From a virus, in the IMG/VR virus record IMGVR_UViG_3300046003_007336, positions 1 through 64,000 of that record: a stretch of DNA of 64,000 nt; one strand, 5' to 3'. The position numbers and the translations under genes are program-made. The notes under the pieces were generated by a model. The model did not search any database. It was not told the DNA's origin and was given only the letters and a program-made list of their open reading frames with translations. Below, piece by piece: positions 27,477 to 56,083 of the stretch. Position 1 is the first letter of the stretch. The number at the start of each line of letters is the position of its first letter.

Positions 27477-28823
27477 ATGTCTCTGCCGAACATCACGCTT
27501 CTATCGTCAACCCAGGGTGAAGTTAGCGTCACCGGTTCCGCCAAGCGTGCTAGCGGGTCGTCCCGCTCTGTCGGCAGCCTCTATACTGTCGTCATCACAT
27601 CTCTGAACCTTCAGGGTCGCGTCTACATTGAGGGAACTCTCGCGGCTTCGCCGACCGAGTACGACTGGTTCGCTATCCCGATGCCGGACTCGGACACCCC
27701 CTACATTGAGTTCCCCGAAATTCTCGGCGGCAACACCAGCGGCGCCCAAAACGTCGGCTTCAATTTCAAGGGCAATCTGGTCTGGGTTCGCGCTCGTCTC
27801 GACCGAGAGCACATGGACCTGGACGGCCTCTCCGAGCAGGCCCTGGCAGCCTACGGGTACATCGACCAGATCGTCATGAACACCGGTTCGTGGGTATCCG
27901 AAGACGGTCTCCCCGCATCCATCGTGGATGGCGGCGTCGGCGTTACCTCGGTGCGGGGCAACAACCTCGGCACGGGTGAGCGCATCTATACGAGTTCGGT
28001 CGGTCAGGCCAACGTACTCCTCAACTTCAAGACCCTGGTCGCTGGCAGCAACGTCAGCATCACGTCGAACGCGAATTCGATCACGATCAACTCCACCACC
28101 GATGGCTCTGGTGGTGGCGGAGATTCGGGACCAGTCTCGTTCCTGGACCTCACCGAGGCCCCGAGTGCGTTTGCGAATGGTATTGTGGCCGGTCGCAACG
28201 GCGATCTTGAGTTTCTGTCCGCTCCCACCGCAGCGAACCAGTCATTGCGCTGGAACGGCTCCGCCTATTACTGGGCCAACCCGGACGCCCAGTCCCCGAC
28301 TAACCTCATCATCAAGGACGACGGCACCGTGGTGACCAACACGGGGGGCGAGATCAACTTCGGCTCTGGTCTGGCCGTCCAGAACGTCGGCGGCGTCCCG
28401 CTCGTCACGGTGCCGGTGGGCTCAGCGGCTACCGCCGACCGCGAATACGTCATGCTCCAGTACACTGCTGGTAGCTCGGGCAACCTCAATTCGGTCGATG
28501 CCATCATCTCGCAGACGAGCGGCGTGACCGTCACGATCATCGACCCGGTCAACTGCGTAGTCGAGTTCACTTTTGCAAACCGCCAGTTCCCACCGTCATC
28601 CATCGCCCTTATGGGTCAGGCCCAGCAGACCAACGATTTCATTTTCTCGAACGTCAACCCCAGCATCGGCACCCGCAAGATTCGCGGTGGCGGTTCAGCG
28701 GCTTCGCCGACCCTGCTTGGTTCTTTCGCAGGCCCGATCACCCTCCAGATTCGTATGTCAGACGTCTCGGCCAGCGCAGCGGTTGGTCAGCGGGCCAAGG
28801 CCGTCGTGATGTTCAGGTTCTAA
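27477..28823 (+). CDS. Virion structural protein (fibre/baseplate-like)
   Basis: Late TAAATA near 27445; Gly/Ser/Thr/Val-rich; LLNFKTLVAGSNVSIT. Confidence 0.65.
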   Translation: MSLPNITLLSSTQGEVSVTGSAKRASGSSRSVGSLYTVVITSLNLQGRVYIEGTLAASPTEYDWFAIPMPDSDTPYIEFPEILGGNTSGAQNVGFNFKGNLVWVRARLDREHMDLDGLSEQALAAYGYIDQIVMNTGSWVSEDGLPASIVDGGVGVTSVRGNNLGTGERIYTSSVGQANVLLNFKTLVAGSNVSITSNANSITINSTTDGSGGGGDSGPVSFLDLTEAPSAFANGIVAGRNGDLEFLSAPTAANQSLRWNGSAYYWANPDAQSPTNLIIKDDGTVVTNTGGEINFGSGLAVQNVGGVPLVTVPVGSAATADREYVMLQYTAGSSGNLNSVDAIISQTSGVTVTIIDPVNCVVEFTFANRQFPPSSIALMGQAQQTNDFIFSNVNPSIGTRKIRGGGSAASPTLLGSFAGPITLQIRMSDVSASAAVGQRAKAVVMFRF

Positions 28824-41209: not shown

Positions 41210-41845
41210 ATGACTGACACCACTGCCCCCTCGGGCGAAACCACGAACACCCACATCGGCCTCGTCGCCGACATCGTCGCCGCCTATGTTTCGAACAACA
41301 TCGTGCAGGCGTCGGACCTGGGCACCCTGATCTCGAACGTCGATCAGGCCATGCGCGCCATCGTCGGCGGCACGACCGAGGTCGAGCCCGCCGCCCCCGC
41401 CGAACCGGCCGTGCCGATTCGCAAGTCGATCACCCCCGACTTCCTGATCTGCCTCAACGACGGGCGCAAGTTCAAGTCGCTGAAGCGGCACCTGCGCACC
41501 AAATACAACATGAGCCCGGAAGACTATCGGGCCCAGTGGGGTCTGCCGCGCGACTACCCGATGGTCGCCCCGAACTACGCGCAGGCTCGTTCGGAACTCG
41601 CCAAGTCGATGGGCCTCGGCCGCAAGGCTGGTGAAACCGGCGCCGCCCACTCGGAACGCACCAAGACCGCTCCGAAGGCTTCGGCTCCGAAGGCCGCCGC
41701 CGTGAAGGCTCCGAAGGCCGCCAAGGCTCCGAAAGCCGCCGCGCCGAAGAAGACCGCCTCGAAGGCCGCTCGCCCGGCCAAGACGGTGGAACGCGAGTCC
41801 ACCCAGGCCGCCGCTGATCTGGCCGCCCCGGTTTCCGCCGAATAA
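41210..41845 (+). CDS. mucR: Ros/MucR-family regulator with Ala/Lys/Pro-rich tail
   Basis: ADIVAAYVSNN, PAVPIRKSITPDFLICLNDGRKFKSLKRHL, YRAQWGLPRDYPMVAPNYA..RSELAKSMGLG. Confidence 0.93.
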   Translation: MTDTTAPSGETTNTHIGLVADIVAAYVSNNIVQASDLGTLISNVDQAMRAIVGGTTEVEPAAPAEPAVPIRKSITPDFLICLNDGRKFKSLKRHLRTKYNMSPEDYRAQWGLPRDYPMVAPNYAQARSELAKSMGLGRKAGETGAAHSERTKTAPKASAPKAAAVKAPKAAKAPKAAAPKKTASKAARPAKTVERESTQAAADLAAPVSAE

Positions 41846-41870
41846 TCCATCGGCGGATTTGAGATGAATG

Positions 41871-41902
41871 ACCCCGCTCGGGAAACCGGGCGGGGTTTTT
41901 CT
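41871..41902 (+). terminator. Rho-independent terminator
   Basis: accccgctcgg-GAAA-ccgggcggggt-ttttt. Confidence 0.85.
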
Positions 41903-41954
41903 TAGGTGAACCAAAATATTGCGAGGTCATTCCCGGACAGGGTATTGTCTGTGA

Positions 41955-42569
41955 ATGAGTTCAACCCGTAAAAAGAAGATCGTTGAAGAAGTAGAACAGG
42001 GCGTAGTCCGGTTCGCCCTGCGTGACCCCAACACGGGTCTCTATTGGGATTGCCAGTTCCCCAAGGTTTCACGGAACCGCCGTTTCTACTGGGAGAGCCG
42101 CTCTCCACCCCCGGTGCTGGAACCGGTATTTCAGGCCCAGCCCACCTATCATGCTCGCCGCAACTTTCTGTCCACGATCTACACCAAGTATGAGATCGAG
42201 AGACGCTGTCGGGCCGAGGGGCTGTCCGAGTTGCCCAAGCTCGAAATGGTCGAACTCCGCGCCGTCTTCACAGTGGCCACGACATCCGAAATCGAGATCG
42301 ACGACAACATCATTCAGGCCGAGCGCATCAAACGCATCCACGGCACCGTGGTGGGAGATGCGGCCAACATCCTGGTCCAGAGAGGCGAGCGGTTGGCCGA
42401 TTTCGAATATGCGATCAAGCGCAAGGGCTCGACCTTCCTCCTCCTTCAGGAAAGCATGCCAGAGGCTCGAAACGCCAACATGGTGACCTTCCTCAAGAGC
42501 GAGAAGGATTTGTTCCAGGCCAAGTTGCTCATCTCGGAAAGCATCACCAAGGTCTACAAGCTCAGATAG
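41955..42569 (+). CDS. Hypothetical protein
   Basis: 204 aa ORF. Confidence 0.65.
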   Translation: MSSTRKKKIVEEVEQGVVRFALRDPNTGLYWDCQFPKVSRNRRFYWESRSPPPVLEPVFQAQPTYHARRNFLSTIYTKYEIERRCRAEGLSELPKLEMVELRAVFTVATTSEIEIDDNIIQAERIKRIHGTVVGDAANILVQRGERLADFEYAIKRKGSTFLLLQESMPEARNANMVTFLKSEKDLFQAKLLISESITKVYKLR

Positions 42570-53666: not shown

Positions 53667-53742
<76 letters not shown>

Positions 53743-53767
53743 CGTCCTAGTATTCACGATGTGTCAT

Positions 53768-53844
53768 CGGGGTATAGCTCAGTCTGGTAGAGCACTCGCT
53801 TTGGGAGCGAGGGGTCAAGAGTTCGAATCCCTTTACCCCGACCA
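53768..53844 (+). tRNA. tRNA-Pro(UGG)
   Basis: Cloverleaf, C1:G72, encoded CCA. Confidence 0.95.
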
Positions 53845-53874
53845 CACGTGAATCCTTCAAGGTATCTGCTCAGT

Positions 53875-53948
53875 CGGGGTGTAGCGCAGTCTGGTAGCGC
53901 ACTGGTCTCGGAGTCCAGGGGTCGTAGGTTCGAGTCCTACCGTCCCGA
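53875..53948 (+). tRNA. tRNA-Pro(CGG), CCA not encoded
   Basis: Cloverleaf with CT-CGG-AG loop; ends ...CCCG-A-CT. Confidence 0.85.
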
Positions 53949-53969
53949 CTGAACAGATAGTTTGATCAT

Positions 53970-54026
53970 CGGGGGAGGCCGTGAGAGGCCAGTGCACTGA
54001 GGTGAAAATCCTCCACCCCCCGTCCA
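53970..54026 (+). ncRNA. 57-nt mini tRNA-like element without an anticodon arm
   Basis: CGGGGG/CCCCCG stem, GGCC-GTGAGA-GGCC arm, GAGG-TGAAAAT-CCTC T-like arm, 3' TCCA. Confidence 0.5.
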
Positions 54027-54035
54027 AACCATCTT

Positions 54036-54111
54036 GGGGTCTTAGCTCATCTGGTAGAGCGCAACACTGGCAGTGTTGAGGTGGCGGGTTCGAGTCCCGC
54101 AGATTCCACCA
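54036..54111 (+). tRNA. tRNA-Ala(GGC)
   Basis: Cloverleaf, G3:U70, CCA. Confidence 0.95.
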
Positions 54112-54115
54112 TTCA

Positions 54116-54215
54116 TGGGCGTGTCGGCGACAACGGGGGCTACCCCGCTAGGCCACCTGCGGTCGGCCCGAAAGGGGGCTTCAGGGAGAGGTGCAAGGCC
54201 TCTCGCGTTCCACCA
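54116..54215 (+). ncRNA. Non-canonical tRNA-like RNA with Ala identity (100 nt)
   Basis: TGGGCGT/GCGTTCC-A-CCA acceptor (G3:U70); GAGAGG-TGCAAGG-CCTCTC T-like arm; extra internal hairpins. Confidence 0.6.
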
Positions 54216-54248
54216 ACCCCGGCGCAATCCCGCGCCACGAGAACCGAT

Positions 54249-54419
54249 ATGGACAAGAAGACGGAGAAGAAAAAGAAGAAACTGCTAGATCGCATCGCCG
54301 AACTGGAAACCGAACTCCGGCAGTCGCTGGGGAAGAAGGATAGTCGCACCGTCGAGATCGACGTGCCGTCCCAGATGCGGAAGATCGCCGATTTGCAGGC
54401 ACAAGTATCGCGGATGTAA
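54249..54419 (+). CDS. Small basic coiled-coil protein inside the tRNA cluster
   Basis: MDKKTEKKKKKLLDRIAELETELRQSLGKK... Confidence 0.65.
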   Translation: MDKKTEKKKKKLLDRIAELETELRQSLGKKDSRTVEIDVPSQMRKIADLQAQVSRM

Positions 54420-54425
54420 ATCCAC

Positions 54426-54500
54426 GGGGATATAGCTTAACGGGTAAAGCGCGCCCCTCGCACGGGCAAGTCTGCGGTTCGATTCCGCATATCTCCACCA
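54426..54500 (+). tRNA. tRNA-Ala(CGC)
   Basis: Cloverleaf, CT-CGC-AC loop, G3:U70, CCA. Confidence 0.9.
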
Positions 54501-54505
54501 ACAAC

Positions 54506-54577
54506 GGGCGGCACAGCCAGTGCAATGGGAATAAGCTTTCCCAGAAGAGTGGGAGTGGCTCTCCCCTCCGTCCACCA
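54506..54577 (+). ncRNA. Degenerate tRNA-like RNA with Ala identity (72 nt)
   Basis: GGGCGG/CCGTCC-A-CCA (G3:U70); TGGGAA-TAAGCT-TTCCCA and GGGAG-TGGCT-CTCCC arms. Confidence 0.55.
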
Positions 54578-54582
54578 AACAG

Positions 54583-54661
54583 GGGCCAGAGAACCACAGG
54601 CGTGGTTCGACGGTGAAGGGGGTCGCTCCTCCATGGGGTTCGATGCCCCACTGGTCCACCA
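54583..54661 (+). ncRNA. Non-canonical tRNA-like RNA with Ala identity (79 nt)
   Basis: GGGCCAG/CTGGTCC-A-CCA (G3:U70); 7-bp D-like arm with 4-nt loop; TGGGG-TTCGATG-CCCCA T arm; no canonical anticodon loop. Confidence 0.65.
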
Positions 54662-54690
54662 TTTCAACACCAACATCCTGGGAGGATGCT

Positions 54691-55544
54691 ATGACACTGC
54701 GGGACGCCTAACAGAGACCTACCGGACTTTCTGCCTCGAACGCGGCATTGAGTTTCATGAGGTCAAGAGTGTGAGACCACACGACAACACGACCTTGTTC
54801 TGCCCTGCGGGGATGCAGCAGTTCAAGGAAGACTACCGGGGACATCGTCGCGGGACCGTATCCAATATTCAGTCCTGCATCCGGCTCAATGATCTGGATG
54901 AAATCGGCGACCAAACCCACCACCTAACCTTCGACATGATCGGGCTGTTTTCGTTCCGTGACATGAGCGTTCTGGAGACCATCGATTTCTGGTTCGAATT
55001 CCTCTCCAAGATTGGCATCAAGCCCGACGTGGTCACCATCCACCCGGACAAGATGCTGGACTGGCGAGAACTCTATCGGGGCCGCGACGTAGAAATACGG
55101 CCGGACCCGGAGTGCACGTGGTCGGACGGCGGCATGGGTGGATACTGCACGGAGTTCTACGTCAGAGGCGTGGAGATCGGCAACATCGTGAATACCAACG
55201 GAGATTCAATCGACGTCGGTTTCGGGATGGAACGCCTTCTCTGGGTTCTCGGCGAAGAAACGCCACCGCGTGGGGACATCCTGGTCCGCACCATCGACCG
55301 CATCGTTGAGTCGGGATACCGGCCCAGCGGCAAGCAGCAGGGTCATGTGCTCCGGCGCCTGATCGGGTTGCTGACAGACGAGGGCAGCCATCCCAACCAC
55401 CCCGAGGTCGTCAGCGAGACGTCCAGACGGGTGAAGCTCTCGGAACGCTTCGACCGCCTTTGGCCGAAGCATCAAGACAAGTCGCCAGAGTGGTGGCTGG
55501 ACACCCACGGTATCGTGGTGTCTGAAATGGTCCTCAGGGTGTAG
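54691..55544 (+). CDS. alaS: Minimal alanyl-tRNA synthetase (aminoacylation core only); SD-linked ATG 54691 is out of frame with the body
   Basis: TTLFCPAGMQQFK, QSCIRLNDLDEIG...HHLTFDMIGLFSF, IDVGFGMERL, GYRPSGKQQGHVLRRL and WLDTHG match the AlaRS core motifs in order; ~280 aa, no editing or C-Ala domain. Confidence 0.85.
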
Positions 55545-55609
55545 CTCAGTGGCAGAGCGCACGGTCGGGAATCGTGAGGCCGGGATTTCAAAATTCCCCA
55601 CCCTGACCA
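55535..55609 (+). tRNA. tRNA-Pro(GGG), overlapping the alaS stop
   Basis: CAGGGTG/CACCCTG-A-CCA; loop TC-GGG-AA (C33 instead of U33). Confidence 0.85.
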
Positions 55610-55654: not shown

Positions 55655-56083
55655 ATGAAGTCATGCACCAAATGTAAACACATACTCACAGACGATCAGT
55701 TCTCAGCGAAAAATTTGACTAAAAACGCTGCGTGGTGTCGCCCCTGCATCAAGGCATATGATCAGGCCAGATGGTCTGCCGGTTCTCGACGAGAAACCAA
55801 AATCGAACAGACAAAAATTTGTCGCCGAAGAAACCGTCAGCATGTTTGGGACTACCTGACTAGGAATCCATGTCCTTGCGGCGAGACAGACCCCATCGTT
55901 CTAGAATTTGACCACCGCGATGGAATGGAAACAAAACGAGGCAATATATGCGAGATGGCCTCACGGGGCCTGTCGATAGAAACTATCGATGCGGAGATCG
56001 CCAAATGCGACGTGCTATGTGCGAACTGCCATAGACGAAAAACGGCAAAGCAGTTCGGCTGGCACGCCGATCTTATTACTTGA
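55655..56083 (+). mobile_element. HNH endonuclease with N-terminal Zn finger
   Basis: CTKC...WCRPC; CPCGETDPIVLEFDH...KCDVLCANCHRRKT; TAAATA at 55644-55649. Confidence 0.8.

Follow-up and report, generated by a model that had tools for sequence, protein, structure and literature searches.

The window analyzed here comprises the first 64 kb of an IMG/VR record of 198.5 kb (CheckV completeness, 44%; G+C content, ~58%) that originated from lake-water metagenomes and derives from a giant phage encoding a tail sheath and a DNA polymerase. With default settings, ARAGORN called 18 tRNA genes and one tmRNA gene in the record. The latter is a separate and complete permuted tmRNA (record positions 76109 to 76601) whose acceptor stem is unlike that of the element described below. 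An Ala/Pro tRNA cluster occupies positions 53667 to 55609 on the plus strand, in the order Ala(UGC), Pro(UGG), Pro(CGG), Ala(GGC), Ala(CGC), TL3, mini-AlaRS, and Pro(GGG), and its canonical tRNA genes are 25 to 86 nt apart. A consensus scan of the plus strand detected no terminator- or promoter-like sites within the cluster, including the stretch between TL3 and the AlaRS gene. The cluster also contains a 56-amino-acid (aa) lysine-rich coiled-coil open reading frame (ORF) (54251 to 54419), and an HNH-like ORF (CANCHRRKT motif; 55655 to 56083) lies just 3' of it.

TL3 (54583 to 54661, plus strand) is a 79-nt gene for an alanine-acceptor tRNA-like RNA without an anticodon. Divided into its structural parts, the sequence is GGGCCAG-A-GAACCAC-AGGC-GUGGUUC-GACGG-UGAAGGGG-GUCG-CUCCUCCA-UGGGG-UUCGAUG-CCCCA-CUGGUCC-A-CCA. 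The acceptor 5' strand GGGCCAG (G1, G2, G3, C4, etc.; 54583 to 54589) forms 7 of 7 pairs, G3:U70 included, with positions 54651 to 54657, and the 3' part (54651 to 54661) consists of CUGGUCC (containing U70), A73, and an encoded CCA. At the D position is the hairpin GAACCAC-AGGC-GUGGUUC (54591 to 54608), which has 7 bp (6 bp without G9-C26) and a 4-nt loop containing GG, and which is present in both the MFE and the centroid folds. Partly paired inside this hairpin is GGUUCGAC (54604 to 54611), a D-loop motif of the tmRNA type. A closed central helix (54614 to 54633) stands in the place of the anticodon arm and is followed by the T arm UGGGG-UUCGAUG-CCCCA (54634 to 54650; 5 bp). A previous reading made from the sequence only had described a perfect alanine acceptor stem with G3:U70, A73, CCA, and a TTCGA T loop, a D-like arm of 6 to 7 bp with a 4-nt loop, the lack of a canonical anticodon arm, and a location immediately before a mini-AlaRS. 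Our analysis recovered each of these features, with AGGC as the D-like loop and with the 3' end of TL3 lying 29 nt upstream of ATG 54691 of the mini-AlaRS region.

The same sequence-only reading proposed two folds for the middle of the molecule, both of which exist: an 8-bp helix (TL3 positions 32 to 39 with 44 to 51; one A.C and one G.U) capped by a GUCG tetraloop, and a 4-bp stem (26 to 29 with 40 to 43) with the 10-nt loop GGUGAAGGGG. We found a third register, in which positions 36 to 40 pair with 46 to 50 (5 bp; 54618 to 54632) around the loop UCGCU and which is approximately as likely as the 8-bp helix (pair probabilities, 0.52 versus 0.40). The whole-molecule energies were -39.7 kcal/mol for the 8-bp register, which is the MFE (z = -2.48; 200 dinucleotide shuffles), -37.1 kcal/mol for the 5-bp UCGCU register, -29.3 kcal/mol for the fold that exposes GAA, and -28.6 kcal/mol for a molecule with no central helix. 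All helices of TL3 are intact (7/7, 7/7, 7/8, and 5/5 pairs) and its T loop equals the consensus. Helices in this condition are not what neutral decay would yield.

The combination of a 7-bp acceptor stem, a canonical T arm, and an NCCA end occurred 10 times in the 198.5-kb record, compared with 0.03 times per shuffle (30 shuffles). TL3 was the sole tRNA-sized, CCA-ending unit of this architecture in the whole record that lacked an ARAGORN call. Logan contigs from other lake-water runs and other studies exhibited no differences from the window (X4, covering 54067 to 54657; X6, covering 54524 to 54674), and the same was true of contig X5 from another study (54674 to 55000). Given that TL3 is identical in contigs of independent studies, it is not an assembly artefact; the contigs over TL3 and the AlaRS start are letter-identical and thus display no natural variation among themselves. 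We conclude that TL3 is a real, structured alanine-identity mimic of a tRNA or of a tRNA-like domain (TLD), without an anticodon.

Regarding its relation to known RNA families, TL3 was absent from the default ARAGORN calls and from the Rfam tRNA hits (RF00005) at the gathering threshold. The top Rfam match was tRNA-Sec (RF01852), which gave 25.8 bits (threshold, 47) owing to the length of the TL3 D stem; as this was the best score in the clan, the tmRNA model scores TL3 lower. Neither group I introns nor other Rfam families matched TL3 or the 287-nt element of a related phage described below. Features of canonical elongator tRNAs that are present include the 7-bp acceptor stem, the 5-bp T stem, and the 7-nt T loop (UUCRA), while a 5-bp anticodon stem with a 7-nt loop (U33 and a purine at position 37) located one base past the D stem was not found in TL3. 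The sequence-only reading had also assigned a Sec-tRNA-like geometry to the D-like arm. TL3 indeed shares with tRNA-Sec and with allo-tRNAs (Mukai et al. 2017; PMC5389517) a long D stem (6 bp in tRNA-Sec) that ends in a 4-nt loop, but its acceptor/T stack is 7/5 rather than the 8/5, 9/4, 8/4, or 9/3 of those RNAs (13 bp, as 8/5 or 9/4, in tRNA-Sec), there is no UCA or other anticodon loop, and the tRNA-Sec score is below threshold. The tmRNA-type motif in the 5' half makes the tRNA-like domain of tmRNA a nearer analogue than tRNA-Sec.

The bacterial alanine identity set that we used consists of A73, G2-C71, G3:U70, G4-C69, and G20 (PMC9976931). TL3 keeps A73, G2-C71, and G3:U70; its 4:69 position is C-G, differing from the G4-C69 of the set, and G20 has no clear equivalent because the D loop is AGGC. 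The three retained elements, the 7/5 acceptor/T stack, and the CCA end are also common to tRNA-Ala and alanine minihelices, from which TL3 differs by C4-G69, the missing anticodon arm, and the 7-bp/4-nt D hairpin; it is also larger than a minihelix. Charging of alanine minihelices by AlaRS is established (Francklyn and Schimmel 1989, as cited in PMC9976931), and the mini-AlaRS of Tupanvirus charges an RNA consisting of the acceptor stem only, in a G3:U70-dependent manner (PMC10036535).

Like TL3, tmRNAs (RF00023; permuted form, RF04321) combine an alanine acceptor and a T arm with the lack of an anticodon arm. Scanning viral contigs for the TL3 3' frame GGGGTTCGANNCCCCNNNNGTCCACCA produced at least 122 matches; those listed comprised 65 tRNA-Ala genes, 16 one-piece tmRNAs, approximately 18 probable acceptor pieces of permuted tmRNAs, and a few small uncalled RNAs. 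As a tmRNA criterion, we used GG(N)UUCGAY located 3 to 5 nt past the acceptor stem and followed by helix P2a. Among the matches listed, GG(N)UUCGAY was present in the 5' half of 12 of 16 one-piece and 10 of 13 permuted phage tmRNAs and in none of the 65 tRNA-Ala genes sharing the TL3 3' frame. Three probable phage permuted tmRNAs (L269, L287, and L369) had exactly the acceptor pair of TL3, GGGCCAG/CUGGUCCACCA, and a T arm near-identical to that of TL3. Their 5' pieces read GGGCCAG-N4-GGUUUCGAC-GGGG..., compared with GGGCCAG-N14-GGUUCGAC-GGUG... in TL3.

The TL3 motif occupies positions 22 to 29, with a helix following it; it starts 14 nt past the acceptor stem, with half of it buried in the hairpin, its first base being number 22 versus 12 to 14 in tmRNAs (8 to 9 nt farther from the acceptor). 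The GGAC linker that precedes the T arm in tmRNAs is missing from TL3. Moreover, TL3 is one short piece that has no P2, pseudoknots, resume codon, or tag ORF, and only 21 nt separate its motif from its T arm. On the basis of the motif, the closed helix, and the shared acceptor pair, we read TL3 as a tRNA-like-domain-only mimic. Judged by its sequence, it looks like a tmRNA TLD whose two halves have been joined by a short helix with a capping loop, plus an extra stretch that base pairs with part of the motif.

A TLD-only (message-less) tmRNA gene has been mentioned, in one line, for mycobacteriophage DS6A (Hudson et al. 2014; PMC4131195). As read from JN698994 (~28478 to 28560), this gene is 83 nt long and scores 43.2 bits on the Rfam tmRNA model. 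It is the closest described system to TL3 and the only described natural analogue that we found. Both RNAs are phage encoded and ~80 nt long, have a G3:U70 alanine acceptor and a T arm, and carry a single closed helix where P2 and the message would be, with neither an anticodon nor a tag frame. Each also has a motif of the (G)GU-CGAC type 3' of the acceptor stem, which in TL3 lies ~10 nt farther from that stem and is half paired in the 7-bp hairpin. The two also differ in the linker before the T arm (GGAC/GCAC, missing in TL3), in the 3' end (CCA encoded in TL3 and CUA in DS6A), and in genomic context, since TL3, unlike the DS6A gene, is in a tRNA operon beside an AlaRS gene. Given its lower score (the best in its clan being 25.8 bits) and the missing GGAC linker, TL3 is filed here as TLD-only-like and not as a member of the tmRNA family. 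Small alanine-frame RNAs without an anticodon arm were also observed in other phage contigs, one example being a 70-nt RNA in L290 (548 to 617; GGGCCGU.../...ACGGUCCACCA, with G3:U70), with a TATAAT box directly upstream. By analogy, these RNAs, the DS6A gene, and a 68-nt tRNA-Ala(GGC) described below may be regarded as precedents for an RNA of the TL3 kind. The tRNA gene cluster of phage T4 also encodes two small stable RNAs of unknown function, designated C and D (species 1 and 2), that are cotranscribed and processed with the phage tRNAs; they are not known to carry alanine identity.

Two further look-alikes with G3:U70, A73, and CCA precede TL3 in the cluster. TL2 (54506 to 54577, plus strand; z = -2.69) is a 72-nt cloverleaf-like RNA with the acceptor GGGCGG/CCGUCC, a T-like arm with a 5-nt loop and no T-loop motif, and a middle hairpin with the loop UAAGCU (containing AGC). 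TL1 (54117 to 54215, plus strand; z = -0.72) is a weaker 99-nt alanine-acceptor look-alike with G1-C72, G2-C71, and a bulged U. The spacing is uniform: TL1 starts 5 nt past tRNA-Ala(GGC), TL2 starts 5 nt past the canonical tRNA-Ala(CGC) (54426 to 54500, plus strand), which lies directly 5' of TL2 and TL3, and TL2 ends 5 nt before TL3, so that all three units (Ala(GGC)-UUCAU-TL1 and Ala(CGC)-ACAAC-TL2-AACAG-TL3) begin exactly 5 nt after a CCA end. Acceptor matches of the form GGG...TCC-ACCA occurred nine times genome-wide (5.45 expected from shuffles), five of them in the 1-kb operon stretch. The TL2 interior GGGAAUAAGCUU resembles the 5' end of the neighboring tRNA-Ala(CGC), GGGGAUAUAGCUU. A permuted tmRNA composed of the TL2 3' end and the TL3 5' end was considered and rejected: only 4 bp pair, compared with the 7/7 of TL3 itself.

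The mini-AlaRS region (54691 to 55544, plus strand) encodes ~280 aa and ends with a TAG stop codon (55542 to 55544). ATG 54691, served by the SD sequence GGGAGGA (54680 to 54686), opens a frame that encodes MTLRDA and then stops; relative to this ATG, AlaRS is in the -1 frame, at an Ala codon. Put the other way, a strong SD and ATG (54680 to 54711) are offset by +1 from the conserved AlaRS frame. The same out-of-frame SD and ATG are present in three relatives (L133, 2489 to 2523; L136, ~2493 to 2526; L190, ~2485 to 2515), whose AlaRS sequences are 50 to 62% identical. The peptide encoded from the out-of-frame start is M(T/S)(L/S)RDA-stop, and in L190 it is MRDA-stop. At the position of the in-frame AlaRS Met of its relatives, L133 carries a stop codon. 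The closest AlaRS relatives (P0002 to P0010) are 59 to 61% identical. At the other end of the gene, the stop codon corresponds to U8-A9-G10 of tRNA-Pro(GGG) (55535 to 55609, plus strand), so that an RNase P cut 7 nt before the stop would be predicted to leave a nonstop mRNA. The mini-AlaRS genes of other phages are usually in or beside a tRNA cluster and often directly after a tRNA (for example, in L134, L152, L165, L167, L183, and L195), and in two cases it is tRNA-Ala (L167 and L183). In L190, the gene directly follows a 68-nt tRNA-Ala(GGC) (2417 to 2484) that has lost the 3' half of its anticodon arm by a 9-nt deletion; its relative L183 has an intact tRNA-Ala(GGC) at the corresponding position (2372 to 2445). 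The AlaRS match of L134 extends as far as the first base (3310) of a tRNA-Ala(GGC).

We found no homologue sharing the interior of TL3 among phage loci totaling 2.7 Mb, among two related giant phages, or in pattern scans of viral and metagenome contigs. Comparisons of TL1 to TL3 with the 2.7 Mb of phage loci by blastn and nhmmer matched the 3' frame only, and a single-sequence covariance model of TL3 (R1) detected ordinary tRNAs only, none of which scored above 32.5 bits. As a search pattern in viral contigs, the TL3 acceptor pair yielded only ordinary tRNA-Ala genes and chance matches, and the exact pattern of T arm plus acceptor had no match. The 60 matches of GTGGTTCGACGG-N15-35-GGGGTTCGA in metagenome contigs were all located in coding or repeat sequences of unrelated organisms. 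The two related giant phages (59 to 60% DNA polymerase identity) had no AlaRS. In the 198-kb fragment, which is 44% complete and says nothing about host SmpB, profiles of SmpB, FemAB, and LPG_synthase_C had no match, an uninformative result.

A large tRNA-like RNA was observed in the tRNA cluster of G001, a related 424-kb phage with 59% DNA polymerase identity. This 287-nt RNA (208115 to 208400; L258, 1287 to 1573) has a perfect GGGCCCU/AGGGUCC stem with G3:U70, A73, CCA, and a canonical T arm near-identical to that of TL3. Its D arm resembles that of a tRNA, and a P2-like helix closes its large, branched interior. It is located before a small ORF and tRNA-Pro(GGG), a place comparable to that of TL3. 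ARAGORN did not call it, and the Rfam tmRNA model gave 18.6 bits on its last 81 nt; G001 has a separate permuted tmRNA at 41648 to 42040. The likeness to TL3 that we found comprises the acceptor/T frame and one 8-mer.

Our preferred reading, to which we assign a probability of roughly 0.55, is that TL3 is a real and maintained small-RNA gene of the tRNA type whose product would be a chargeable but nondecoding alanine acceptor or decoy. TL3 keeps what appears to be the accepting half of an alanine tRNA or tmRNA (i.e., the G3:U70 acceptor, A73, CCA, the T arm, and a GG capable of forming the elbow), and the closed helix would stand in for the anticodon arm of a tRNA or for the P2 and message domain of a tmRNA. 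The RNA would be transcribed together with the Ala/Pro tRNA operon and released by tRNA-processing enzymes at the 5-nt spacers; most probably, it is excised with the phage tRNAs and chargeable. AlaRS generally reads only the acceptor stem (PMC9976931; PMC10036535), and we therefore infer that TL3 may be alanylated by the host enzyme, by the phage mini-AlaRS encoded 29 nt downstream, or by both. Its likeliest job would be that of a nondecoding alanine acceptor or decoy occupying a factor that recognizes the acceptor/T-arm half, candidate targets being AlaRS, EF-Tu, SmpB, and a host enzyme that attacks tRNA ends. The sequence-only reading had likewise suggested a chargeable, nondecoding RNA, and this part of its interpretation fits the anatomy, given the alanine acceptor determinants and the missing anticodon arm; its other suggestion, that a GAA loop might insert Ala at Phe codons, was not supported.

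That suggestion requires the 4-bp stem with the 10-nt loop at -29.3 kcal/mol, approximately 10 kcal/mol worse than the closed central helix at -39.7 kcal/mol, which makes decoding unlikely. At a lowered threshold, ARAGORN did call a tRNA at exactly 54583 to 54661, with the four-base anticodon GAAG, but this threshold produced 280 calls in the record versus 18 tRNAs and 1 tmRNA by default. Decoding could also take the form of a quadruplet reading by GAAG or of a doublet reading by the loop UCGCU, which contains the alanine anticodon CGC, and the latter might promote the -1 shift, at an Ala codon, that the AlaRS gene seems to require relative to its SD and ATG. The D hairpin and the central helix are nine unpaired bases apart, and at most one base lies between that helix and the T arm, so that the L-shape distance to an anticodon is lost, and L133 and L136 share the frameshift site without a TL3-like element nearby. 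TL3 is thus unlikely to read codons, and the specific decoding roles proposed above strike us as exceedingly improbable. We give equally little credence to the view that the stretch is coding sequence, namely, an N-terminal extension within a 339-aa ORF (54525 to 55544). From ATG 54525 through TL3, no stop codon interrupts the AlaRS frame, but ~45 stop-free codons are not unusual at 58% G+C (a rough estimate), and the tRNA architecture is expected by chance only 0.03 times per genome. The homologues begin with MEVVYV.AGRL, aligned with position 54678 onward, their upstream extensions are mutually unrelated, and L133 has a stop codon directly before the homologue start point; for these reasons, we read the ORF through TL3 as coincidental.

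More serious, although we still consider it unlikely, is the proposal that TL3 is a relic: a decayed duplicate of a tRNA-Ala or a tmRNA TLD that has lost its center and has no function of its own, serving at most as processing punctuation that gives the AlaRS message a free 5' end. The phage loci and contigs scanned contained no conserved TL3 homologue, TL1 and TL2 appear progressively more worn, which could mean decay, and the tRNA-Ala(GGC) of L190 offers a case of simple deletion where the L183 gene is intact. Because a mini-AlaRS often starts after some tRNA, any tRNA-shaped unit would serve as punctuation; the canonical tRNA-Ala(CGC) 82 nt upstream, however, could already do so. Also against a relic, the TL3 helices are intact, the interior is built from new helices that pair well and does not retain an old anticodon arm with mismatches, and CCA, A73, and G3:U70 are retained in three units with differing interiors. 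We are more doubtful that TL3 acts in cis as the leader of the mini-AlaRS message, whether as an autoregulatory tRNA-Ala mimic, as a message-stabilizing 5' structure, or through masking of the SD GGGAGGA by CUCCUCC (54626 to 54632). An autoregulatory mimic would resemble that of thrS, through which ThrRS governs its own production. No terminator- or promoter-like site lies in the 29 nt between the end of TL3 and the start codon, and six bases of the central helix complement the SD, a pairing that the fold of 54560 to 54700 uses. Within 54583 to 54720, however, the cloverleaf (-48.8 kcal/mol; free MFE, -49.0) was favored over the SD-masking fold (-44.3), and the extended folds were no better than shuffles (z = -0.34 and -0.96). 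The closest AlaRS relatives, L133 and L136, share the start arrangement without an upstream tRNA-like element, and the encoded CCA and the 5-nt spacers suggest that TL3 is cut out as a free RNA.

A wider reading goes beyond the nondecoding alanine acceptor that we prefer for TL3, and we offer it with considerable reservation: the three look-alikes and the mini-AlaRS might form one phage module in which an enzyme that reads only the acceptor stem loads nondecoding RNAs, either as alanyl donors outside decoding or as tagless TLD RNAs that tune ribosome rescue. Because the AlaRS stop codon is inside tRNA-Pro(GGG), giving a potentially nonstop message, ribosome rescue would matter for the operon itself; the phage also encodes its own tmRNA. 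AlaRS ignores the anticodon, so that the loss of all decoding ability need not prevent an RNA from being charged. What is new here is the presence of three copies, the tmRNA-type motif, and the physical link to a phage mini-AlaRS. With a mimic, in three copies, and an alanine-activating enzyme in one transcription unit, the locus gives the most direct hint from genome sequence to date that RNAs of this kind are meant to encounter an AlaRS. One enzyme and one 79-nt RNA would make a compact, testable pair for a nondecoding role of alanyl-RNA in infection.

Other unusual tRNA-like RNAs were observed among the viral contigs. Two marine phages encode a 91- to 92-nt tRNA-like pair without a D arm (L171, 1600 to 1690; L199, 1587 to 1678), whose central loops are 7 and 8 nt long and of which one has G3:U70 and the other G3-C70. 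In a class of phage tRNA-Ala(UGC) genes, the anticodon arms are normal but the D regions are odd and compact, reading CAUGUACCAAGGC... or forming a 4-bp stem with a 4-nt loop; its members include L152 (3348 to 3424), L183 (599 to 675), L205 (694 to 772), L277 (8287 to 8358), L072, and L364. Most of these genes were missed by ARAGORN, and several adjoin mini-AlaRS genes.
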